A stretch of DNA of 64,000 nt from an uncultured Planctomycetota bacterium (GCA_963737655.1 CAVTTN010000002.1:1856001-1920000), one strand, 5' to 3'. Shown: positions 1 through 10,066, counted from the stretch's first letter. The notes: generated by a model not told the origin, from the sequence alone. Numbers and translations: made by a program.

Positions 1-7
1 GAACGCC

Positions 8-3000
8 GTGAACGCGGCGGCGGCCGCCTACAACGCGGCCGTGGCCGCCTCCGACGCGACCTACAACGCCGCGATCGACGCCGCATCGAGCGTCTACAAC
101 GCCGCCACCGCCGCCGCCGACGCGGCCAATCAGGCCGCCTCCGACGCCGCCGAGGCCGCCTATCAATCGGCCTCCGACGCGGCCCAGGCGGCGTATAATT
201 CGGCCTCTCAGGCGGCCCAGGCGGCCCACGACTCGCAGTATGTCGCCGCCGAATCGGCCTACGCGGCCCAGGCTCAGGCCGCCCAGAACGCCTATACGGC
301 GGCCGTCGCCCAGGCCGATTCCGCCTACGACGCCGCCTCCGCCTCGGCCCAGGCCACCCACGACTCCGCCTATCAGGCCGCCAACGACGCCTACAACAAC
401 GCCTTGCAGGCCCATCAGGCCACCTACAACGCCGCCGTCGCGGCGGCCGACGCCACCCAGAGCGCCGCCTACCAGGCCGCCCAGTCCACCTATGACGCCG
501 CCGTCCAGGCCGCGAGCGACGCCTACGACTCGGCCGCTCAATCGGCCGACGACGCGTACAACTCCGCGGTCCAGGCCGACACCGACGCCACCAACGCCCA
601 GATCCAGGGCTATCTCGACTCGCTCAATGGAACGGTCCAGTCCGCCGATGCCGCCCGGACGGTCTCGCTCAACGCCGCGGCGGCCACCTACAGCTCCGCC
701 TCCCAGGCCGCCAACAACGCGTATAACGACGCCGTGGCCGGCTTCAACCAGACCCGTTCCGATGCCGACAACGCCGCCAGCCAGGCGTACAGCAACACCA
801 TGAAGGGCGCCAACGACGCCCTGAACAACGCGCAAAACGCCTTCTACCAGGCGATGAGCAACATCGAGATGGCCCAGATGCAGTGGTACTACTCGCATCC
901 CAACGGAGGCACCCCGCCCGATTACAGCGCCCAGATGCAAGCGGCCACCGACGCCTTCAACGCGGCGAAGAAGCAATATGCCGTGACCGAGGCGCAAGCG
1001 GAAGTCACCCTGGCCCAGGCCACCGGCGCCGATGCCGTCGCGTTCGTCACGTCGGAGCAAGGCGCGGCCGTCACCCGGATCACGGCCCTGGCCAACGCCG
1101 GGAAGGACCAGGCGATCGCCGGGGCCCAGGCGAACAAGACGTATGTGGACGCGGTGGCCCCGGCCGTGGCCGACTTCCGGGCCCAGCAGGCCCACGCCAA
1201 CGCCGATCTCACGCAAGAGGTGGCCGACCAGCGGGTCGATCTCGCCCAGGCGATCGCCTCGGCCCTGAAGACCTTCCGCAACACGACGGCCGACGCCGCC
1301 GAGACCCAGGCCAACGCCAACGCGGCCGCCGACAAGGCCTGGACCCTGTCCGAGGCCTCGGCCATGGAGGCCATGAACAACGCCGACGCCGCCTCGGCCG
1401 AGACCCTGGCCAACGCCCAGGCCGACGCCGACGGTGCCCTCGACAACGCCCTGGCGCAAGCCGATGCCGCGTGGGTGGCGTCCGAGGCCTCGGCCGCGAC
1501 CACATTGGAGAACGCCCAGGCCCAGGCCGACCTGACCCGGACCACGGCCGAGGCCAACGCCGATGCCGCCCTGACCACGGCCCAATCCAACGCCGGGGCG
1601 GCGGAGGTCGCGGCCCTGGCCACGGCGGGAGTGGCGTGGTCCACCGCCCAGGCCTCGGCCGATCGGGCGTGGGTGGCCTCGGTGGTCTCGGCCAACACGG
1701 CGTTCGCCTCCTCGGCGATCGCGGCGGCCGTGGCCTCGGCCTCGGCGGAAACCAACGCCTGGGCGGCCGAGCAGAACGCCGAGGCCTCGGCCGTGGTGGC
1801 GTCCGCCTCCGCCTGGGCCGGCGCCCAGGGGACGCATTACGCGGGCTACTTGCTCGCTCAGATCCACGCCTGGGCGGCCGGGGTCTCGGCCCAGGTCGCC
1901 GCCGAGGTCACCTACGAGACGGCCGTCGATGCCGCCTGGGCGACCCAGCAGATGTCCGACGCGACGGCCGACGGCGCCCTGGACAACGCCCAGGCCGCCG
2001 CCGACTTCGCCCAGACCGTGGCCGTGAGCGCCGCGGAGGCGGCGTTCGACTCCGCCCAGGCCGTGGCGCAAGCGGCGTTCGACTCGGGAGAGGCCGCCGC
2101 GTGGGCCGCCGAGACGACCGCCGAGGGGGTCGCCGGGGTCGCCTGGACGGCCGCCGCCGCCTCGGCCCAGGCCGCTCTCAAGAACGCCGTGGCCGCCGCC
2201 GAGGTCGCCCACACCGCGGCCCTGGTCTCCGCGGGCAAGGCCCAGGTCTCGGCGCTGGCCTCGGCCAATACCGCCTGGGCCCGGAGCGAGGCGTCGGCCG
2301 ATTCCGCCTTCAAGAGGACGATGGCCGACGCCGCCTCGCAGTGGGTCGCCGCCGGGGCCGCCGCCGCCAAGGACTGGGCCAAGGCGATCGCCGACGCCGC
2401 CAAGACCTGGTCCGACACCGTCTGGCCCGGCTGGGCCACCTACGTCGACGCCCAGGCCCACGCCGCCGCCGACTGGACCGATTCGGTCGTCCACGGTTAC
2501 GCCGATTATCAGAAGGGCGTCGCCGGGGCCGGCGTCACGTTCGTCCAGACCGTGGCCCCCGCGCAGGTCACCTACGCCACGGCGGTGGCCAACGCCGACA
2601 AGACGTTCAACATCGCCATGGCGAACATCACCGTCACGCGCACCGTGGCCGGCGCCGAGTTGAACGTGGCCCAGGTCGAGGCGCAAGACCCCTCGGCCTT
2701 CGCCTCGATCACCCCGACCGGAGGCGGGGGCGGCTGGTTCTCGGGGATCATGAGCTACCTCGGAGGGCTGGCCGGCGGCCTCCTGATCGGCGGGGCGATC
2801 GTCATCGGCCTGGCCGTCCTGGCCTGTTACATGCCGGTGGCCGCCGCCGTGGCGGGGATCGGTCTGCTGGTCGTCCTCGGCGCCAACATCGTGGCCGGGG
2901 CGATGGAGCGCTACGCCGACGGCCAGGGCCTCGGGAGCTCGGTCTTCGGCTCGGTGGCCGACAACACCGGGATCGGCGGGGCGTATGCCGCCGCGACCGG

Positions 3001-3424
3001 CCGGGACATCGCCACCGGACAGGACCTGGGCCTCAGCAGCGACCAGCGGGCGGCCCTGGGCGGCCAGGCCACGGCCGACCTCATCCTGGCCCTCTTCGGC
3101 GGCCGGTTCAAGTTCTGCTTCGTCGCCGGGACTCAGGTGCTCATGGGCGAGGACGACGGCTCGCTCGCCTCGACGACCGAAGACGCCGCCGCGCCCCCGA
3201 TCGACGAGGACGCGACCGACCCCGAGGTCATCGTCCTGAGCCTCGCCGGCCTGTCCCTGGCGTATGGGGCCTATCGGTGGTCCCGGGCCCGGCGTCAGGC
3301 CGAGCGCCGCCGCCGCCTCCGGGCGATCGACGCCGCTCTGAACGACGAGGATTCCCTCGACGACGAGTTCTCGTTCGAGGAGGCCGAGGACGAGCGGTTC
3401 GTCCCGGAACTCCAGGTCGCCTGA
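8..3424 (+). CDS. Large Ala-rich polymorphic-toxin carrier protein (probably 5'-truncated by the window edge) with hydrophobic pre-toxin helices, an N-terminal Hint fragment and a C-terminal membrane anchor
   Basis: 1138-aa ORF with strong GC3 bias and 11-residue Tyr periodicity. Hydrophobic Gly/Ala stretch LGGLAGGLLIGGAIVIGLAVLAC...; CFVAGTQVLM (Hint block A) at 3116-3145; TM-like VIVLSLAGLSLAYGAY (3227-3274) followed by an Arg-rich then acidic tail. Confidence 0.8.
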   Translation: MNAAAAAYNAAVAASDATYNAAIDAASSVYNAATAAADAANQAASDAAEAAYQSASDAAQAAYNSASQAAQAAHDSQYVAAESAYAAQAQAAQNAYTAAVAQADSAYDAASASAQATHDSAYQAANDAYNNALQAHQATYNAAVAAADATQSAAYQAAQSTYDAAVQAASDAYDSAAQSADDAYNSAVQADTDATNAQIQGYLDSLNGTVQSADAARTVSLNAAAATYSSASQAANNAYNDAVAGFNQTRSDADNAASQAYSNTMKGANDALNNAQNAFYQAMSNIEMAQMQWYYSHPNGGTPPDYSAQMQAATDAFNAAKKQYAVTEAQAEVTLAQATGADAVAFVTSEQGAAVTRITALANAGKDQAIAGAQANKTYVDAVAPAVADFRAQQAHANADLTQEVADQRVDLAQAIASALKTFRNTTADAAETQANANAAADKAWTLSEASAMEAMNNADAASAETLANAQADADGALDNALAQADAAWVASEASAATTLENAQAQADLTRTTAEANADAALTTAQSNAGAAEVAALATAGVAWSTAQASADRAWVASVVSANTAFASSAIAAAVASASAETNAWAAEQNAEASAVVASASAWAGAQGTHYAGYLLAQIHAWAAGVSAQVAAEVTYETAVDAAWATQQMSDATADGALDNAQAAADFAQTVAVSAAEAAFDSAQAVAQAAFDSGEAAAWAAETTAEGVAGVAWTAAAASAQAALKNAVAAAEVAHTAALVSAGKAQVSALASANTAWARSEASADSAFKRTMADAASQWVAAGAAAAKDWAKAIADAAKTWSDTVWPGWATYVDAQAHAAADWTDSVVHGYADYQKGVAGAGVTFVQTVAPAQVTYATAVANADKTFNIAMANITVTRTVAGAELNVAQVEAQDPSAFASITPTGGGGGWFSGIMSYLGGLAGGLLIGGAIVIGLAVLACYMPVAAAVAGIGLLVVLGANIVAGAMERYADGQGLGSSVFGSVADNTGIGGAYAAATGRDIATGQDLGLSSDQRAALGGQATADLILALFGGRFKFCFVAGTQVLMGEDDGSLASTTEDAAAPPIDEDATDPEVIVLSLAGLSLAYGAYRWSRARRQAERRRRLRAIDAALNDEDSLDDEFSFEEAEDERFVPELQVA

Positions 3425-3531
3425 GACCCCCGACCTCGAAGGGCCGGCGCCGGAATTCCCGGCGTCGGCCCGCCCCGAGGCCGAGCCCGGCCCCGGACCG
3501 GAACTCCCCCCAAACCGCCGAGGAACCGACC

Positions 3532-4434
3532 ATGAACCGAACCGAAACGGCCCCGAAAGGGCCCCGATTCTGGACGGCCTGGACCCTCTCCTGGGCCGCC
3601 GTCTTCGGCCTGGCCCTCGCCCACCTCGCCTGGCGACACGGCGACAGGACGGCCGACCGCCCGGCCCTCGCCCGGCTCTCCTCGCCCGTCCCGACCCCTT
3701 CGAAAAAGACCAAATCCATCGAAACCATCGCGCCGGGCGATCGCGTCCTGGCCCGCAACGACGTGACCGGCGAAGTGGCGCCCCGACGGGTCGCCCAGGT
3801 CTTCCGCAACACGGCCGACCACCTGAGGACGGTCCGCATCCGCTCCGATTCCGGCACCGTTCAGGAGCTGAAGACGACCGACGACCACCCGTTCTTCGTC
3901 GTGGGCCGGGGCTGGGTCCTGGCCAGGTCGCTGGAACCCGGAAACAAGGTCCTTCAGCCCGACGGCCGCGAGGCGGAGGTCGATTCGACGTCGCGAGAGG
4001 CGCATCCGGAGGGCGTCGCCGTCTTCAACTTCGAGGTCGCCGAGTTCCACACCTATTTCGTGGCCGAGACGGCCAACGATCCGTTCGTCCTCGTCCACAA
4101 CGACTGCGTGGCCCGCGCCGAGGCCGCCGCCGCCCGTCACGGCGGAACACGGATGCCCGGGACCGACAACTGGAGCTTCCCGACCCGAAGGGCGGCCCGG
4201 CAAGCGGCGTCGGAGATCGCCGGCAACCTCGGCTCCGATCCCGTCCCGATCCGCATGAGGGACTTCCGGGGCAAGCCTCCCGGGTTCAACCCCAACTCGG
4301 AGATGGTCCACGGCCAGAAGAGCGCCGACGGCTCGATCCTCTGGCGGGACGACTTCCTCGGCCATCCCCGGTTCGGCGCCGGGCCTCACGTGAACGTGGA
4401 GATCGACGGGCACAACTTCCACCTGTTCTACTGA
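3532..4434 (+). CDS. Membrane-anchored Hint (C-terminal part) + nuclease-like toxin, cassette 1
   Basis: GAGGA 7 nt upstream of ATG 3532. N-terminal TM RFWTAWTLSWAAVFGLALAHLAW; KSIETIAPGDRV, TTDDHPFF (TxxH), VFNFEVAEFHTYFV and VLVHN-DC; C-terminal domain with D..GH..GPHVNV..H.FY resembling Tox-HNH-EHHH. Confidence 0.8.
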   Translation: MNRTETAPKGPRFWTAWTLSWAAVFGLALAHLAWRHGDRTADRPALARLSSPVPTPSKKTKSIETIAPGDRVLARNDVTGEVAPRRVAQVFRNTADHLRTVRIRSDSGTVQELKTTDDHPFFVVGRGWVLARSLEPGNKVLQPDGREAEVDSTSREAHPEGVAVFNFEVAEFHTYFVAETANDPFVLVHNDCVARAEAAAARHGGTRMPGTDNWSFPTRRAARQAASEIAGNLGSDPVPIRMRDFRGKPPGFNPNSEMVHGQKSADGSILWRDDFLGHPRFGAGPHVNVEIDGHNFHLFY

Positions 4435-4512
4435 GGCGAAGCGGGCGAGGCCGGGGGCCCGACACTCGGCTCCTGGCCCGCCGGATTCGATCCGGATCGG
4501 GGAGGTTCGGTC

Positions 4513-4887
4513 GTGAAGGCATTCTGGCGGTACGACTGCGACTTCGGCCATCACTGGACCTTCTACCGAGACCTCGACGCCCCGGAGAGGCCCGAGGACA
4601 CGGTCTGTCCGTTCGGCCACGAGGCCGTGACACGGACCCGAGAGCCGGTGGTCGATCGGGTCGAGATCGCGTTCCGTCCCGGGGCGCGGGTGGTCGATTC
4701 GGTCAAGGGTCAGATCGGCCACGAATACGATTTCCACCTCGTCCTGACCGATCCGAGGACCGGCGAAACGAGGATGTCGCTCCGGCCCGTCCCCTGGACC
4801 GAGGCCCTGAGACACGCCCAGGCCCTGTACGATCGCGGCTTGACCCGCGATCGCTCGTGGGCCTACTTCGACAAGCACCTGTCCTGA
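4513..4887 (+). CDS. Putative immunity protein for toxin 1, possible Zn-binding motifs
   Basis: GGAGG + GTG start, 124 aa, directly downstream of the toxin; CDFGH...CPFGH motifs. Confidence 0.6.
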   Translation: MKAFWRYDCDFGHHWTFYRDLDAPERPEDTVCPFGHEAVTRTREPVVDRVEIAFRPGARVVDSVKGQIGHEYDFHLVLTDPRTGETRMSLRPVPWTEALRHAQALYDRGLTRDRSWAYFDKHLS

Positions 4888-4962
4888 GCGGGCCGGTCCG
4901 CCCGGCCGATCCACCTCACCCCCCATCGCTCGGGCGTGTCTCCGCCCGAGGAGGAGGTCTTC

Positions 4963-5912
4963 ATGATCGGTGAGATTCCGCGAGACGACCCCGCGAACGA
5001 TCCCCGGCCCGCGCGATCGGCCCGGTTCTGGGCCCTCTGGACGATGGCCTCGGCGACCGTGGTCCTTGGGGTCATGGCGACGAGGGGGGCTTCCCCTCCG
5101 AAGCCCGAGAGGCCCGCCGGACCGGTCTGGCGGCCGATCTCCGTCACGGCCGAGCCCGCCCGGCGCTCGAGGTCGATCGAAGAGGTGAAGGTCGGCGACC
5201 TGGTGATGAGCCGGGACGACGCGACCGGCGCCGTGGTCCCGAAGCGGGTCGTTCGCCTGTTCCGCAACACCTCGGACCACCTCCGGCTGGTCCGGGTCCG
5301 GGCCGGGTCCGGCGCCGAGCAGACGATCGAGACGACCGACGACCACCCGTTCTTCGTCGTCGGCCACGGCTGGTCGGCGGCCAGGGACCTTGTTCCCGGA
5401 GACCGCCTGACCCAGCCCGACGGCGAGATGGCCGAGGTCGCCGCGACCGAGAGGCGGGATCATCCCGAGGGCGTCCCGGTCTTCAACTTCGAGGTCGAAG
5501 GGACGCACAATTACTTCGTGGCGCGATCGCCCGACGATGCGTTCGTCCTCGCCCATAACGAGTGCATCCGGGTCAAGCCGGGCCGGCAGGCCCCGGGCCA
5601 CGAGTTCCGGATCAGCCCCGATGAGCTGAATTTCGTCAAGAACTTGCTCGCGAGGAACCGCAAGCCCAACCTGGAGGTCTATCGGACGAACCAGACCGAG
5701 AGGATGGGCGACTTCATCGTGATCGATCGTTCCAATCCCAGCAAACCCGTCGGCTGGGTCGTGGACGTGAAGATGGGCGGAGGGGCGCGGGCAACCAGCT
5801 GGAGAACGCCGCGAGGGCCAAGCAGATGTTCGGCCTCGACCAGCTCAAGACGGCCTCGGGGACCGCCGCCGACCTGATCCGCCAGCTCGGGATCGGCCGG
5901 GGGCAATGGTGA
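4963..5912 (+). CDS. Membrane-anchored Hint (C-terminal part) + PD-(D/E)xK-like toxin, cassette 2 (apparent 1-nt deletion near 5782-5785)
   Basis: GAGGAGGAGG before ATG 4963. TM RFWALWTMASATVVLGVMA; RSIEEVKVGDLV, TTDDHPFF, VFNFEVEGTHNYFV and VLAHN-EC. Toxin motif GDFIVID...VVDVK; adding one G in the GGGG run continues as GAGNQLENAARAKQMFG...GQW* (TGA 5910-5912), 4 nt before the next ATG. Confidence 0.72.
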
Positions 5913-5916
5913 CGCG

Positions 5917-7071
5917 ATGACCGGAGATTCGACGCGATGGCGGATCGCCGACGGAGGGCCGGCGATCCCCGAACCTTCCTCCGAGGAGGTGGCCCGGATG
6001 CTCGGGTCGGCCGAGGCCCGGCCTTCGGGCGATCGGCCCTGGGCGATCGTCCGCTCTCCGGACGACGCACCCCGTCTCCTCGCCCGCGACGACGCCGATC
6101 GGTTCGTGGCCGGGTTCTGGTCCGCGTCCGGTCGGCTCTTCCTCGCGGCCTCGCCGATCGGCGGAGGGCCCGGGTCCGTTCTCAGCGAATGGGTCCCGGA
6201 CGGCTCGTGGCGACCGGCTCTCTCCCTGGCCGGGGAGGTCCTGGGAGTCGCCACCCCGCCGGGCGGCAAGGGACCGGCCGTCACGGTCCTCGAACCCGAT
6301 CGGAAGCGGCTGGCGCTGGTCGGCCTCGACGGCTTACCGATCGCGTCCATCTCGCTCGGGTCGCCGGCCCGGGAGAGGGCCTGGGCGGCCTCCGGGACGG
6401 CCGTTCGTTCGGAGGACGGCACGCTTGCGGTCTTCGACGCCGGGCTCGCCCCCCTTGGCACGCCGTTCCGGTTCCGCAAGAGACTTGATGAACTGGCCCT
6501 CGCGCCGGGGCCTGATCACGTCTTTGGGTTTGGTCGCGATCCGGGGGTCTGGTCGGTCGATCTCCCGGCAGGGGAGCCCTGGTCCGTCGGGCGCGAGGGC
6601 CTCGCCACCCGCGCCGTGATCCCTCTGGGCCTCGGAGGGGCCGTTTGCGGATGGGAAGATGGCGCGGTCACGCGGTTCGATGCGTCGTCGCGACAGGTCC
6701 TCTGGACGACCGAGGCCGAGCCCGGGTGCCAATCCCTGGTGATCGACGTGGCCATCGGGACCGGGCGGGTCGTCTCGGGCTCGTCCTCGGGAAAAGTCCG
6801 AGCCCTCGACCTCCTCGGCGGAGCGGGGCGCTGGGAGATCGACGTGGGGACGGGCACGGTCGAGCACGTCCTGATCCTGGGCGGATGGGTGATCGCGGCC
6901 GGGGCGAACGAAGTCCTCTCCGTCCTGGATCTGGCCTCGGGCGAGGCCCGGGCCCACCTCTTCGGCCACCGGCACCGGATCACCCACTTGACTCCTTCGG
7001 CCCTCGGATCCGGGTTCATCTCCGCCGACAAGACGGGCCGAATCCTCGCCTGGGACCTCGCCGGGGGATGA
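5917..7071 (+). CDS. WD40/PQQ-type beta-propeller protein, candidate immunity for toxin 2
   Basis: Repeats such as VVSGSSSGKVRALD, LFGHRHRITHL and FISADKTGRILAWD; tightly coupled to the corrected cassette-2 stop. Confidence 0.65.
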   Translation: MTGDSTRWRIADGGPAIPEPSSEEVARMLGSAEARPSGDRPWAIVRSPDDAPRLLARDDADRFVAGFWSASGRLFLAASPIGGGPGSVLSEWVPDGSWRPALSLAGEVLGVATPPGGKGPAVTVLEPDRKRLALVGLDGLPIASISLGSPARERAWAASGTAVRSEDGTLAVFDAGLAPLGTPFRFRKRLDELALAPGPDHVFGFGRDPGVWSVDLPAGEPWSVGREGLATRAVIPLGLGGAVCGWEDGAVTRFDASSRQVLWTTEAEPGCQSLVIDVAIGTGRVVSGSSSGKVRALDLLGGAGRWEIDVGTGTVEHVLILGGWVIAAGANEVLSVLDLASGEARAHLFGHRHRITHLTPSALGSGFISADKTGRILAWDLAGG

Positions 7072-7099
7072 CTCCTCCCGAGGGAATCCCCGGCCTCTT

Positions 7100-7663
7100 C
7101 TAGAATTCGATCCCGAGTTGCGCCTTCACCCCCGATTTGTACGGATGTTTCACCGCGACGATCTCCGAGACGAGGTCGGCGGCCTCGATGATCTCGGGAG
7201 GCGCGCCTCGGCCGGTCAGGACGACGTGTTGCCTCGGGTCTCGGGCCTGGAGGAACTCGACGACGAGCTTCGGGTCGAGGTAGCCGAGCTTCATCACGAC
7301 GTTGATCTCGTCGAGGATCACCACGTCATACTTCCCCGAGGCGATCGCCTCCTTGCTGACCTCCCAGATCGCCAGGGTGGTGGCGATGTCCTGCTCGGGG
7401 TTCTTGGTGTCCCAGGTGAAGCCGTCGCCCATGGGCAAGATCGTGATGTCGGGCGCGAGCCGATCGGCCATCTTCTTCTCGCCGGTCTTCCACTTCCCCT
7501 TGATGTACTGGACCATGAAGACCTTGAAGCCGACGCCCAGGGCGCGGAACGCCAGCCCGAGCGCGGCGGTCGTCTTCCCCTTGCCATCGCCGGTGTTCAC
7601 CAGGATCAGGCCCCTCCGCCTCTTGGGCTCCGGGGCGGGCGGCTCGTCGTTCAGTTCGGCCAT
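7100..7663 (-). CDS. cobO: Cob(I)yrinic acid a,c-diamide adenosyltransferase
   Basis: TGDGKGKTTAALG P-loop, QYIKG, GDGFTW, ILDEIN, VLTGR and KHPY..GVKAQLGIEF. Confidence 0.95.
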   Translation of the reverse strand: MAELNDEPPAPEPKRRRGLILVNTGDGKGKTTAALGLAFRALGVGFKVFMVQYIKGKWKTGEKKMADRLAPDITILPMGDGFTWDTKNPEQDIATTLAIWEVSKEAIASGKYDVVILDEINVVMKLGYLDPKLVVEFLQARDPRQHVVLTGRGAPPEIIEAADLVSEIVAVKHPYKSGVKAQLGIEF

Positions 7664-7700
7664 CGGGGCACCTCGTCGGGCGGGAAGGGAAGGAAGGGTC

Positions 7701-9674
7701 TCAGGCGGTCTGGGCCAGGATCGAGCGTCGGATCGCGTCGGGCAATCGCTCGCCCTGGAGGTCGTCGAGCCTCCGGCACGGGACGCCCCAGGCCCGGGCC
7801 AGCCCCTCGGCCATCCCGAGCCGGACCGGGCCCGCCTCGGTGTCGATGACGAGGCCGGCCAGCCGGCGGCGACCCAGTTCCGCGGCGATCGCCAGGGATT
7901 GGGCCTGGGGATCGGCCCCGGGCGAGGTCGGGAGGTTGCCCCGGCCGTCGGTCAGGAGGACCAAAAACGGGATTGCCCCGGGGTCTCTCCGCCGCGAGCG
8001 GTCCGCGACCACGCCCGCCAGGGTCATCCCCGACGCGAGCGGGGTCGCCCCGCCGATGGGAAGGTCGGAGAGGACTCGCGCCGCCTCCCGGACGCTCCTC
8101 GACGGCGGCAGGACGAGCCTCGCGCCGCCCTTGCCGAAGGCGATCAGCCCGACGCGGTCCCTCTTCTGGTAGGCATCGACGAGCAAGGACAGGACCGCCG
8201 CCTTCGTCCGCCCCATCCGCGACCGCGCGCCCATCGACCGGCTCGCATCGACGCAGAAGAGGACCAGGCGGGCCGTCGGCCGTTCCCGGAGTTTCCATCG
8301 CACGTCGATCGGCCGGATTTCGAGTCGCGATCCCGATCCGCCCCGGCGGAGGGCCTGCCTCGGGGCCGCCTGGCGGATCGTCGCGGCCAGCGCCAGGCCC
8401 CGGCCGGACGCCCGGCGATCGGTCGAGCCGACGACGGCCCCGGAACGATCCGAGGGGGAGGCCGCGCCTCCGAGGCCCGATCGCGAGGCCGGGACTCGAC
8501 GAGGTCCGCGGGGCCCTTCGAGGCGGACGACGGTCGGCCCCTCGGCCGGCGCGGCTTCCGGGTGTCCCGCCTCCGGGTCGATCGCGCCGAGTCCGTCGGT
8601 CCCGGACGCCGAAGCGCCCGATCGTCCGCCCGAATCCGGCGGACGAGGCCCGCCCGGCCGGTCGGGAGGGCGATCCGCGGGCGAATCGTCCAGGACCGAG
8701 GGCCGACGAGGCCCCGGGGGCGGCGCCGGGGCCGTCCGGCGATGGACCAGGGCCATCTCCGCCACGGCCTCGACGTCCTCCGAGGTCACCGATTCGCGAC
8801 CATCATACGCGGCGAGGGCCGAGGCCGCCCGGACGATCGTCAGGTCGGCCCGGAGCCCCTCGGCCCCTTCCCGGGCGCACCGAGAGCAGATCGCATCGAG
8901 GACTTCCTCCGGGACGGCGATCGAGGGCAGCCGGAGGCGGGCGTCGGCGATCCTCTGCCGCTCCTCTCGCTCGGAGTCCGCCCAGGTCGCGGCGAAACCG
9001 GCCGGGTCGCGGTCGAACTGGAGCCTCCGGCGGACGACCTCGGCGCGGGTCCGGGATTCGGTCATCGAGTCGGCCTCGACGACCAGGCCGAAGCGGTCGA
9101 GGAGCTGAGGGCGGAGGTCCCCTTCCTCGGGATTCATCGTCCCCACGAGCACGAACCGCGACGGATGAACGAACGCCACGCCCTCGCGCTCGACCCGGTT
9201 CACGCCCATCGCGGCGACGTCCAGCAAGAGGTCGACGAGGTGGTCGGCCAGGAGGTTGACCTCGTCGATGAACAGGACCCCGCGATGGGCCGAGGCGAGC
9301 AGGCCCGGCTCGAACACTCGACGGGCGGAGCCGAGCGCCTTCTCCAGGTCGAGGCTGCCGACGACGCGGTCTTCCGAGGCCCCGACGGGCAGGGTCACGA
9401 ACCGCGCGGGCCTCCGGGCCAGGCCGGCCGAGTCGGGGAGGGGCCAGCCGGCGATTTCCTCGTCGGGGGAGCGTCCGAACGGATCGCCCTCGAACGTCTC
9501 GACGTCGGGCAACAGGGCCGCCAGGCCCCGGGCGGCCGTGCTCTTGGCCGCCCCCTTCGACCCTCGGACCAGGACGCCCCCGAGGCCGGGATGGATCGCG
9601 GCCAGGACGAGCGCCCGCTTCATGGCCTCCTGGCCCACGATCGCCGAGAACGGATAGACGGCCGCGTCCCCCAT
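7701..9674 (-). CDS. ChlI/ChlD-like chelatase subunit (AAA+ ATPase + vWA), probable cobaltochelatase partner of CobN
   Basis: YPFSAIVGQ, G.KG.AKST Walker A, LFIDEVNLL, GTMNPEEG.LRPQLLDRFG, Pro-rich linker and DASRSM MIDAS. ATG overlaps the upstream stop (ATGA). Confidence 0.9.
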   Translation of the reverse strand: MGDAAVYPFSAIVGQEAMKRALVLAAIHPGLGGVLVRGSKGAAKSTAARGLAALLPDVETFEGDPFGRSPDEEIAGWPLPDSAGLARRPARFVTLPVGASEDRVVGSLDLEKALGSARRVFEPGLLASAHRGVLFIDEVNLLADHLVDLLLDVAAMGVNRVEREGVAFVHPSRFVLVGTMNPEEGDLRPQLLDRFGLVVEADSMTESRTRAEVVRRRLQFDRDPAGFAATWADSEREERQRIADARLRLPSIAVPEEVLDAICSRCAREGAEGLRADLTIVRAASALAAYDGRESVTSEDVEAVAEMALVHRRTAPAPPPGPRRPSVLDDSPADRPPDRPGGPRPPDSGGRSGASASGTDGLGAIDPEAGHPEAAPAEGPTVVRLEGPRGPRRVPASRSGLGGAASPSDRSGAVVGSTDRRASGRGLALAATIRQAAPRQALRRGGSGSRLEIRPIDVRWKLRERPTARLVLFCVDASRSMGARSRMGRTKAAVLSLLVDAYQKRDRVGLIAFGKGGARLVLPPSRSVREAARVLSDLPIGGATPLASGMTLAGVVADRSRRRDPGAIPFLVLLTDGRGNLPTSPGADPQAQSLAIAAELGRRRLAGLVIDTEAGPVRLGMAEGLARAWGVPCRRLDDLQGERLPDAIRRSILAQTA

Positions 9675-10066
9675 CAGATCTCCTCGCCGCACGCGCGCCG
9701 GGCCTCGCGCTCGAACCGATTGTCCAGGTAATAATGCCCTCCGCGCCGCCAGGCCCAGGCCGATTCGATCAGGTAGGCCGGGATGAAGAACAGGCCCCAT
9801 CGCTCCGCCTGGCGGACGTGGACATGTTCATGGTCCCGGCAGTAGTCCAGGCAATGGGGATCGCGCCCGACGATCACATGGCCGAGGGTCATCGCCGCGA
9901 ACCCCCACCGGAGGCCCAGCCATCGCGAGAATCCGCCGTGGAACTCGATCACGCCCCGCCGCACCTGGGCCTGGCCGCCGGTCAGGAGCGTGAGCGCCCC
10001 GGCGACCAGGCCGACGCAGGTCGTAGGGGCCGTCCAGGCATAGAGGATCGGGGCGATGGGGCGCAT
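9674..10066 (-). CDS. Small hypothetical membrane-associated protein with HExxH motif
   Basis: AMTLGHVI...DHEHVHVRQAERWG...NRFEREA; translationally coupled to the chelatase gene. Confidence 0.75.
   Translation of the reverse strand: MRPIAPILYAWTAPTTCVGLVAGALTLLTGGQAQVRRGVIEFHGGFSRWLGLRWGFAAMTLGHVIVGRDPHCLDYCRDHEHVHVRQAERWGLFFIPAYLIESAWAWRRGGHYYLDNRFEREARRACGEEI

Follow-up and report, generated by a model that had tools for sequence, protein, structure and literature searches.

A pre-toxin Hint domain encoded in two genes beside membrane helices in a planctomycete polymorphic-toxin locus and its relatives

The 64,000-nucleotide stretch of DNA analysed here (hereafter the window; GCA_963737655.1, CAVTTN010000002.1:1856001-1920000) comes from an uncultured, soil-type Planctomycetota bacterium and carries on its + strand, at positions 1-7100, a row of genes in which a large carrier protein is followed by two toxin cassettes and a Hint (intein-like) domain is divided between carrier and cassettes. 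The carrier ends with the first strand of the domain, including the catalytic Cys1, and a membrane helix, and each cassette opens with a membrane helix of its own and continues with the remainder of the fold; both Hint pieces keep their catalytic residues, which are equally conserved on the two. We read this arrangement, with a probability of roughly 60%, as a polymorphic-toxin locus whose pre-toxin Hint domain, an A-type member of the bacterial intein-like (BIL) domains, is encoded in two genes, with strand 1 of the carrier complementing an exported cassette protein at the membrane. There is good support for a two-gene Hint that is real and recurrent and whose halves would come together on the outer side of the cytoplasmic membrane. 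An initial annotation of the same DNA had proposed a system in which the toxic tip is chosen at the protein level, by trans-splicing or trans-triggered cleavage; the division of the Hint domain and its recurrence stand, whereas trans-processing, and a choice of the tip at the protein level rather than by recombination, are proposals.

The carrier gene occupies positions 2..3424 of the window (+ strand, codons from 2, 5 and so on) and starts upstream of it; in the genome the full-length product comes to ~1,490-1,504 residues, is Ala-rich with helical repeats, and bears an N-terminal motif (...RRRAKKLMFEVLEGRVMLDG) of a type that we take to be common at the starts of large planctomycete surface proteins. 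Comparison with PDB sequences, UmbC included, gave no match for the carrier, and in Pfam it matches PT-TG alone and weakly: the PT-TG-like pre-toxin region just 5′ of the Hint start (2966..3109, + strand; PF14449, E 5.6e-4) scores 20.3 bits when the last 240 residues are searched and 16.7 bits with the whole carrier, both below the gathering score of 23.5. At 2700-2960 (carrier residues ~1290-1345) a Gly-rich hydrophobic stretch, GGGGGWFSGIMSYLGGLAGGLLIGGAIVIGLAVLACYMPVAAAVAGIGLLVVLGANIVAGAM, precedes this region; similar Gly-zipper-like stretches precede the Hint in an RHS-type relative (L010), and they might span the membrane of the producer or help entry into the target. The Hint N-fragment itself, CFVAGTQVLMGEDDG (3116..3160, + strand), consists of Cys1, whose codon stands at 3116 after ...GRFKF, and strand 1, and includes CFVAGTQVLM. 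Direct reading of the frame continues through an acidic linker (3161..3226), the C-terminal membrane helix TM1, VIVLSLAGLSLAYGAY (3227..3274; H=1.47 with a hydropathy script), and, at 3275..3424, an Arg-rich stop-transfer sequence, RWSRARRQAERRRRLR, with an acidic tail (AIDAALNDE...) that closes at TGA 3422-3424. The linker between strand 1 and TM1 is acidic in other loci too, and an equivalent of TM1 is found in every split and continuous relative described below. The tail is coding-like up to its stop, with a G+C content by codon position of 0.84/0.39/0.91 in its own frame. The pattern C[FL].[AEKPS]GT has 32 six-frame matches in the 7.6-Mb genome, six of which are followed by Hint sequence; four of these lie in complete Hints, and the two truncated ones are the window carrier and a second carrier at G000:C2:6074034.

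The CFxAGT motif of the carrier is thus followed by a stop codon and a 107-nt spacer (3425..3531, + strand) before cassette 1 begins, and the spacer holds a Shine-Dalgarno (SD) sequence, GAGGAA (3520-3525), 6 nt 5′ of an ATG. Cassette 1 (3532..4434, + strand) starts at ATG 3532 with 12 mostly polar or basic residues, enters a hydrophobic helix (TM2 or a signal anchor, 3568-3633), and continues with the Hint C-fragment (3709-4101) and a toxin domain (4102-4431). Its residues 60-191 match positions 8-137 of the 137-position PT-HINT profile (PF07591) at 86.2 bits, against a cut-off of 27.7, and the Hint ends in VHN (HN at 4096-4101), followed by D-C and a 107-residue tail. Cassette 2 (4950..5912, + strand) repeats this plan, with the SD sequence GGAGGAGG (4950-4957), ATG 4963, TM2 (5026-5079), a Hint C-fragment (5170-5559) that matches PT-HINT at 69.5 bits on profile positions 9-136 and ends in AHN (HN at 5554-5559) before E-C, and a PD-(D/E)xK-like toxin. 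In both cassettes the SD sequence lies 5-6 nt 5′ of the ATG and the CFxAGT motif is absent. The initial annotation had described a carrier with the first Hint motif, a membrane anchor and a stop at 3424, and two downstream open reading frames (ORFs) at 3532 and 4963 that supply the rest of the domain, each with its own SD sequence and ATG, an N-terminal helix, no CFxAGT, a different toxin, and Asp or Glu at +1 with Cys at +2 (HN-DC, HN-EC); direct reading of the frames and the PT-HINT matches, which begin at profile position 8/9, agree with this description throughout, ATG 4963 included.

A second, diverged locus of the same split design is found elsewhere in the genome (L040; G000:C2 ~6,066,500-6,075,452). 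Its carrier, a giant protein rich in Ser, Thr and Gly, terminates with CFVAGTRVVLADD, an acidic linker, the helix LGITCVVLGAGLGGLWL, YRDLQERRRRRR (RRRRRR) and an acidic tail with TGA, and 60 nt past this TGA the same frame resumes with GAGGTGAGGA, an ATG, TM2, a Hint without Cys1, HN and a toxin. The tail resembles that of the window carrier in make-up, both ending ...A-TGA, and since carrier and cassette are here separated by an in-frame stop, a single insertion or deletion error cannot have made this locus split. The Hint of L040 also contains an extra insertion of ~75 residues after its K.IE strand.

Relatives of the locus show that the two genes have a one-gene counterpart. When the first 193 residues of cassette 1 were compared with 121 genomes of the same family, 102 gave matches, nearly all of them to ordinary Hints. 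One match, G052:C14 (E 4.7e-42, query residues 23-190), is a single open frame of 1,625 residues in which CFVAGTRVVVADPNPP (CFVAGTRVVV), TM1, RARKRPDDDALDAALQDEW (RARKRP), a loop of ~75 residues, ...SAMTPSRPQRARGS (M), TM2, KCIEDIKVGDRV...VHNAG and a toxin follow one another; it corresponds to both window genes as one, with a two-helix insertion of ~200 residues between Hint strands 1 and 2, and its order bears out the expectation that the joined pieces rebuild the ordinary start of an A-type BIL or PT-HINT domain. Another match, G053:C2 (query residues 6-190), belongs to a TPR-type protein with an ordinary Hint and was dropped. Most Hint matches in the family genomes are of a type represented in the host by four paralogous proteins of ~600-700 residues (G000:C2:103015, 2440267, 2807547 and 4780144), which open with a signal-like sequence, continue with TPR/HEAT-like repeats and carry at the C-terminus a complete Hint (CFAAGT...HDN), after which come only ~20 residues and no toxin.

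Wider searches recovered stand-alone cassettes in quantity. In a large protein collection, 46 proteins of 165-525 residues matched at E ≤ 1e-5, and the 33 examined comprise 16 that read M, basic residues, helix, linker, K.IE... and lack Cys1, four of the same build with a longer N-terminal part, six with the Cys1 motif, and seven fragments cut at the N-terminus. A profile built from 16 cassettes and searched against 1.84 billion cluster representatives matched 39,906 proteins with E ≤ 0.001, 2,245 of them with E ≤ 1e-30. The best 150 matches were sorted by a script (motif plus helix threshold), which assigned 88 to stand-alone proteins without Cys1 and with a helix within 130 residues of the start, 17 to proteins without Cys1 whose helix lies further in (some being pieces of continuous genes), 16 to continuous proteins with a helix-bearing insertion and six to ordinary Hints; 15 had no helix at the threshold used, four were truncated at the start and four lacked the search motif.

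At the level of loci, a search of species genomes yielded 596 pattern matches, 411 of which encode relatives; the best 80 were kept and gave 67 loci, each classified both with a script and by eye. Of these, nine are continuous and have a two-helix insertion of 165-311 residues (L041, taken to be the G052 locus and counted once, L046, L049, L052, L058, L064, L071, L074 and L107), and nine are split (L047, L053, L059, L061, L063, L069, L077, L083 and L090), one of which, L059, is irregular and looks decayed. Five further loci (L055-57, L065 and L079), from one long-read metagenome-assembled genome (MAG) with tandem units of both kinds, were set aside because their breaks may be errors. Helix-type cassettes without a carrier in the fetched DNA account for 13 loci, two or three at contig ends and the others beside unrelated genes, and ordinary Hints, mostly from Paenibacillus, for the remaining 31. 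The homologues are not always single polypeptides, and relatives with the split layout do occur in other genomes with stops, spacers and SD-ATG starts. In the split loci the carrier stop is TGA, TAA or TAG and a spacer of 15-258 nt follows; the cassette ATG lies 12-24 residues before TM2 in nine of the 11 split examples tabulated, window and paralogue included, often preceded by words such as AGGAG or TAAGGA, where the DNA is locally richer in AT. The combination of stop codon, spacer and SD-ATG is seen in the window locus and in eight further clean split loci, and in L047, L069 and the paralogue L040 carrier and cassette share one frame with stop codons between them. The two-gene Hint layout is recurrent, and it belongs to a widespread planctomycete gene family.

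Several of these loci have features of their own. The tandem units of the long-read MAG, ~2.5-3 kb each, contain an N-terminal part of ~400 residues, CFTAGH, TM1, loop, TM2, Hint and toxin. Continuous units occur as well as units broken at varying positions in the loop, and the motif Thr is replaced by His. On an isolate contig of Neorhodopirellula pilleata (L087), two helix-type cassettes and LRR/HEAT-like putative immunity genes are flanked by IS200/REP-type transposase-like genes, with no carrier within 6 kb; a widened Cys1 pattern had matched CVPTDS there, and on reading this match was rejected and with it the classification of L087 as continuous. In Paenibacillus (L094, L101, L103, L105 and L106), spare cassettes begin ~7 residues into the Hint (...KFLTNEGEK.IE...) and have no membrane helices, with an in-frame stop after CFAAGTKVLTEDGE in L106; their boundary is that of the planctomycete split and of the Neisseria mafB-CT cassettes.

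The catalytic residues are conserved on both pieces. In 18 aligned N-fragments (10 split, eight continuous) CFxAGT does not vary at C, F, A or T and hardly at G, with nothing conserved outside the motif; a variant, CFTAGH, occurs in other loci. On the cassette side, T116, H119, H189 and N190, which form TxxH and HN, are invariant in 16 of 16 cassettes. In a maximum-likelihood tree of 48 Hint cores (L040, which the motif had missed, is left out) cassettes group by locus, and split and continuous loci interleave, for instance in the pairing of split L069 with continuous L041 (88/81), which indicates that the change between one gene and two happened several times. A starred clade (95/82) unites four split loci (L077, L063, L083 and L090), the cassettes downstream in them, and L088, a cassette without a carrier in the fetched DNA, with a Schlesneria clade of three continuous loci as its sister. 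The carrier tails of this mostly split clade have in common DRY.AAG, where the helix begins, and RRRR, close to the stop, and have diverged in the remainder, so that the split state has been kept through divergence.

Structure prediction is in line with this picture. We modelled a complex of a 55-residue carrier piece (25 residues before Cys1 and 29 after it) with residues 46-193 of cassette 1, each supplied with an alignment. The model scores 0.78 (0.78, 0.76 and 0.79 in individual runs) against 0.46 for the best of three controls, and passes a mark reached by 116 of 157 solved complexes and two of 215 mismatched pairs; because structures of Hint domains and split inteins have already been solved, this pass shows likeness to them and is no independent proof. 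The runs agree in at least 80% of contacts, with a predicted local distance difference test (pLDDT) value of 51-52 for the partner. In the modelled interface residues 22-38 of the carrier piece pair with core residues 58-64 and 175-181 and touch residues 113-120 (TxxH) and 188-191 (HN). An AlphaFold2 (AF2) model of the continuous relative, made from a 25-row alignment, has a mean pLDDT of 71.5, with 96 for strand 1 and 92-98 for the core, and places helices at 48-71 and 160-179; strand 1 and core are confident despite the insertion. The N-fragment is thus predicted to occupy the canonical strand-1 position both in cis and in trans.

These models bear on a different account of the cassettes, in which each would be a self-sufficient, Sec-exported toxin whose partial Hint either frees the toxin by Asn cyclisation alone or is inert, with the CFVAGT of the carrier a mere relic. 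C-terminal cleavage by inteins does not need Cys1, many cassette N-termini resemble signal peptides with small-x-small motifs after the helix, and the carrier-less loci, some of them beside unrelated genes, would fit such autonomy. A relic, however, would have varied, whereas all 10 split carriers aligned keep the motif invariant; loss of a core strand should unfold the Hint, and both models put that strand in the core with high confidence, so that we regard autonomous action of the cassettes as highly improbable.

How carrier and cassette could meet is suggested by the distribution of charge around their helices. By the positive-inside rule, the acidic residues before TM1, the Arg-rich segment after it and the basic residues before TM2 would place the carrier tail after TM1 and the cassette start before TM2 in the cytoplasm, and therefore both Hint pieces on the outer face, or periplasmic side, of the membrane; in the continuous relatives the TM1-loop-TM2 hairpin, inserted between strands 1 and 2, would leave the Hint pieces outside likewise. 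TM2 would serve as a signal anchor or perhaps be cut off as a signal peptide, and in a 16-cassette alignment read by eye many cassettes show small-x-small motifs after the helix. We propose that the tethered carrier would offer strand 1 to whichever exported cassette protein adjoins it, and that only the Hint completed in this way would autoprocess, with Cys1 undergoing an N-S acyl shift and the Asn of HN cyclising. Were the outcome cleavage, the commoner one for BIL domains that have been tested, carrier and toxin would be freed from their anchors together and unlinked; were it ligation, the toxin would be transferred onto the carrier, which would make the latter useful as a carrier. Ligation as the product seems possible to us, if doubtful. 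In its most developed form the proposal would have a membrane-tethered split BIL domain load and release the toxin, the carrier being anchored by TM1 until a cassette completes the Hint, whereupon the domain and both anchors would be excised and the toxin ligated through aminolysis or a nearby conserved Cys; this version is tentative and, in our estimate, rather unlikely. As first and later cassettes are equivalent in a split locus, several toxins would compete for one carrier.

A number of observations weigh against a two-gene Hint that is completed at the membrane, and the first of them concern the assembly. The genome consists of three contigs at 87.7% completeness, as is typical of long-read assemblies with insertions and deletions, and the four frame breaks in its two toxin loci are all -1; three fall on G-runs of four or five, the fourth on a GG doublet. 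Two of them lie in the L040 carrier, one at a G5 run and one at GG (G000:C2 about 6071740 and 6073925). In the window, toxin 2 is frame-broken as assembled: a -1 break falls at the G-run 5782-5785, where third-position G+C switches frame, and the reading runs on in the shifted frame to the stop at 5910-5912, while relatives of this toxin, found in seven of 400 other genomes sampled from the phylum and by eye apparently PD-(D/E)xK-like, read ...DLKQGA.L..GGGGAG.QL.N... straight through it. The pattern suggests single-base deletions in the assembly, although real mutations would look alike; other genes of the same genome may carry similar -1 breaks. The change of frame from carrier to cassette 1 is also -1, the cassette 1 frame is open far upstream, and a single missed base in ~3404-3421 would render the window locus continuous. 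Codon periodicity in the spacer is weak (0.69/0.81/0.86) and slightly favours the cassette frame, in which third-position G+C (GC3) is highest (0.86), second-position G+C being high as well. It is conceivable, then, that the assembler dropped one base before 3422 and that the true gene has the continuous hairpin form, only cassette 2 being separate. We consider this quite improbable. The error would have to fall within the final ~20 nt of a tail whose sequence is coding-like as far as its stop (GC3 0.91), the translated spacer is an Arg/Pro-rich string unlike the loops of continuous relatives, and the SD sequence stands 6 nt before an ATG that is itself 15 residues from TM2, a distance usual for split loci. 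Moreover, the paralogous L040 tail ends alike (...A-TGA) with an in-frame stop, and split loci occur also in short-read-style assemblies, judged by contig names such as k141, in which single-base errors of this kind are rare. Cassette 2, which sits after another gene, is a separate gene whatever happened at 3422. Programmed frameshifting at 3400-3424 was considered as a simple reading and set aside, as no slippery heptamer was seen there; low-level read-through of the TGA stops may still take place.

A second set of objections is chemical. The residue after HN in the window cassettes, Asp or Glu, is not one of the nucleophiles Cys, Ser and Thr; of 137 relatives, 75 have Ala at this position and 10 have Cys. 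Within +1 to +4, 69 of the 137 contain a Cys, which is frequent at +2 or +3 (HN-x-C). Some splicing by an A-type BIL domain with Ala at +1, through aminolysis, is said to have been observed (Dassa et al. 2004). According to the accessible part of one study, the BIL domains tested mostly yield products cleaved at the N- and C-ends, and a single mutation is enough to make efficient splicers of them (PMC7664689), and the available portion of another has A-type BIL domains cutting their C-end without ligating (PMC7765530); with products that are mostly cleaved, the use of the carrier would be left unexplained if no ligation follows.

The remaining objections come from the genetics of the family, and most of them would suit a reservoir, in which the cassettes are stand-alone modules used by DNA recombination within the Hint-coding region, the carrier stop, in an unconstrained cytoplasmic loop, is neutral or the start of decay, and no chemistry between proteins takes place. 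Recombination of this sort is the standard model of polymorphic toxin diversification (PMC3482391). Cassettes of other loci are 87-99.5% identical in DNA over ~490-625 nt, as recombination or gene conversion would give, and cluster by locus on the tree. The downstream cassettes of continuous loci such as L058, which have no consistent start codon, are classical silent spares, and 13 of the 67 loci have cassettes without a nearby carrier. The toxin loci of the host genome contain frame breaks, and L059 looks decayed. Spares in Paenibacillus and, in the available text on them (PMC4287609), the mafB-CT cassettes of Neisseria begin ~7 residues into the Hint and have no membrane helix. A search of the carrier tail (residues 1250-1490) against a collection of 5.8 billion proteins, with candidates of 819-2,608 residues, gave nothing at E ≤ 0.001, close relatives included, a null result that is probably due to composition and that leaves split carriers to be counted on fetched DNA only.

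Against the reservoir speak four features of the split loci. CFxAGT is kept invariant in split carriers while the rest of their tails diverged; the split state is held across the starred clade, where four of five loci are split; and the cassettes of split loci have an ATG and SD sequence at a fixed distance from TM2. In the window, finally, the DNA homology required for swapping is weak: across 360 nt the two cassettes reach 74% identity and have no word longer than 31 nt in common, and the DNA before cassette 2 has no sequence in common with the carrier, so that exchange by homologous recombination is poorly provided for there. We therefore consider it unlikely that the cassettes are recombination spares and nothing else, and prefer the two-gene Hint completed at the membrane.

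Two other genes of the row may encode immunity proteins. A small ORF of 124 residues (4513..4887, + strand) without a Pfam match is a candidate immunity protein by its position after cassette 1, and a beta-propeller ORF (PQQ_2/WD40-like; 5917..7071, + strand; PF13360 at 35 bits, cut-off 27.6), 4 nt after cassette 2, is possibly another immunity protein, or else unrelated. The toxin domains of both cassettes have no Pfam match. BLASTP of toxin 1 against two cassettes that bear Tox-HNH-EHHH gave no significant similarity, and its atlas neighbours are polymorphic-toxin clusters, all below 0.9, which we take as a lead only and from which no family was named. A scan of 2800-7400 returned no promoter-like site and no + strand terminator, a result that is uninformative in a GC-rich organism. 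On the minus strand at 7100-9800, ORFs that by eye resemble Cob(I)alamin adenosyltransferase and Mg/Co-chelatase end the toxin row.

In the prevailing view, polymorphic toxins change their tips by DNA recombination with spares, and the pre-toxin Hint is a self-cutter within one chain. A Hint in two genes beside membrane helices points to a second route, in which carrier and toxin would be made and exported apart and would meet only at the membrane. If true, this would explain why the spare cassettes of several phyla start seven or eight residues into the Hint, which has been noted for Neisseria and left unexplained, and would offer a testable model for the release of giant planctomycete surface toxins. 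Even with cleavage only, a self-cutter switched on by a strand of another protein would be a new kind of control over toxin release. Should the toxin be loaded onto the carrier, one carrier could be loaded post-translationally with any one of several toxins whose genes lie close by or in other parts of the genome, and this would be the first trans protein ligation for combinatorial toxin assembly, with an N-piece of only about ten conserved residues. A split Hint with so short an N-piece that acts outside the cytoplasm could also be of practical interest for protein ligation.

In a comparison of the cassette profile with PDB sequences, matches were obtained to 2LWY (E 1.3e-34) and to the Hint of 8W20 (E 1.4e-24), and the system invites comparison with several known ones. 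In naturally split inteins a Hint fold encoded by two genes must reassemble; these elements unite the two parts of a single conserved host protein and require the +1 residue to be Cys, Ser or Thr, and atypical members have very short N-fragments. The window locus resembles them in its two separately translated Hint-fold fragments and in the shortness of its N-piece (~10-15 conserved residues). It differs in that a carrier and interchangeable toxins, and not the parts of a single host protein, form the flanks, in that Asp, Glu or Ala stands at +1 in place of a nucleophile, and in that the pieces would be tethered to the membrane outside the cytoplasm. Classical orphan modules of Rhs and contact-dependent inhibition (CDI) systems lack starts for translation, and their 5′ parts are homologous and nearly identical to the main gene. 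The window cassettes, in contrast, have SD-ATG starts and an export helix and resemble one another and the carrier little at the DNA level, and so depart from silent orphans on both counts, although high-identity homology is present in other loci of the family. What they share with Rhs/CDI orphans, as presented in the accessible part of PMC3482391, is the array of toxin-immunity pairs downstream of a main gene.

Closer in overall build is UmbC of Streptomyces (bioRxiv 10.1101/2023.12.09.570830; PDB 8W20), which by the available portion of that preprint is likewise a long helical-repeat carrier with a terminal HINT and toxin and has a related Hint core; it is one chain with a complete Hint, and the window carrier gave no sequence match to it. 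The mafB-CT cassettes of Neisseria (Jamet et al. 2015, PMC4287609) are likewise alternative toxin cassettes downstream of a gene for a full-length toxin; each begins at a start codon of its own and they, in the part of the paper at hand, carry an A-type BIL domain that lacks its first 7 residues, which is the boundary seen in the window, where profile positions 1-7/8 are missing. Unlike the planctomycete loci, they have no membrane helix on either side and the upstream MafB may hold a complete BIL domain, and the same part of the paper describes no carrier that ends in strand 1 and proposes no trans reaction or mechanism.

The nearest relation is to the A-type BIL and PT-HINT domains themselves. 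The architecture of PT-TG followed by PT-HINT is known (PMC13483458), and in PMC3482391 a HINT domain that precedes the toxin figures as the peptidase that releases it. The planctomycete domains belong to the same family: they score well over the PF07591 cut-off, have Cys1, TxxH and HN, stand between a carrier end of weak likeness to PT-TG and a toxin, and have a non-nucleophilic +1 residue. The known members are single continuous domains, whereas here the Cys1 block A is not in the same polypeptide, strand 1 being on another one, or else is set apart by a two-helix insertion of ~200 residues. The initial annotation knew of no description of such an arrangement, and the literature searched, which left most subscription journals and supplements outside its scope, likewise contained none of a Hint with a membrane-hairpin insertion or of a split BIL domain. 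The pre-toxin Hint itself is thus a known element, and what the planctomycete loci add to it is a natural split and, as the helices on either side suggest, a tether to the membrane.

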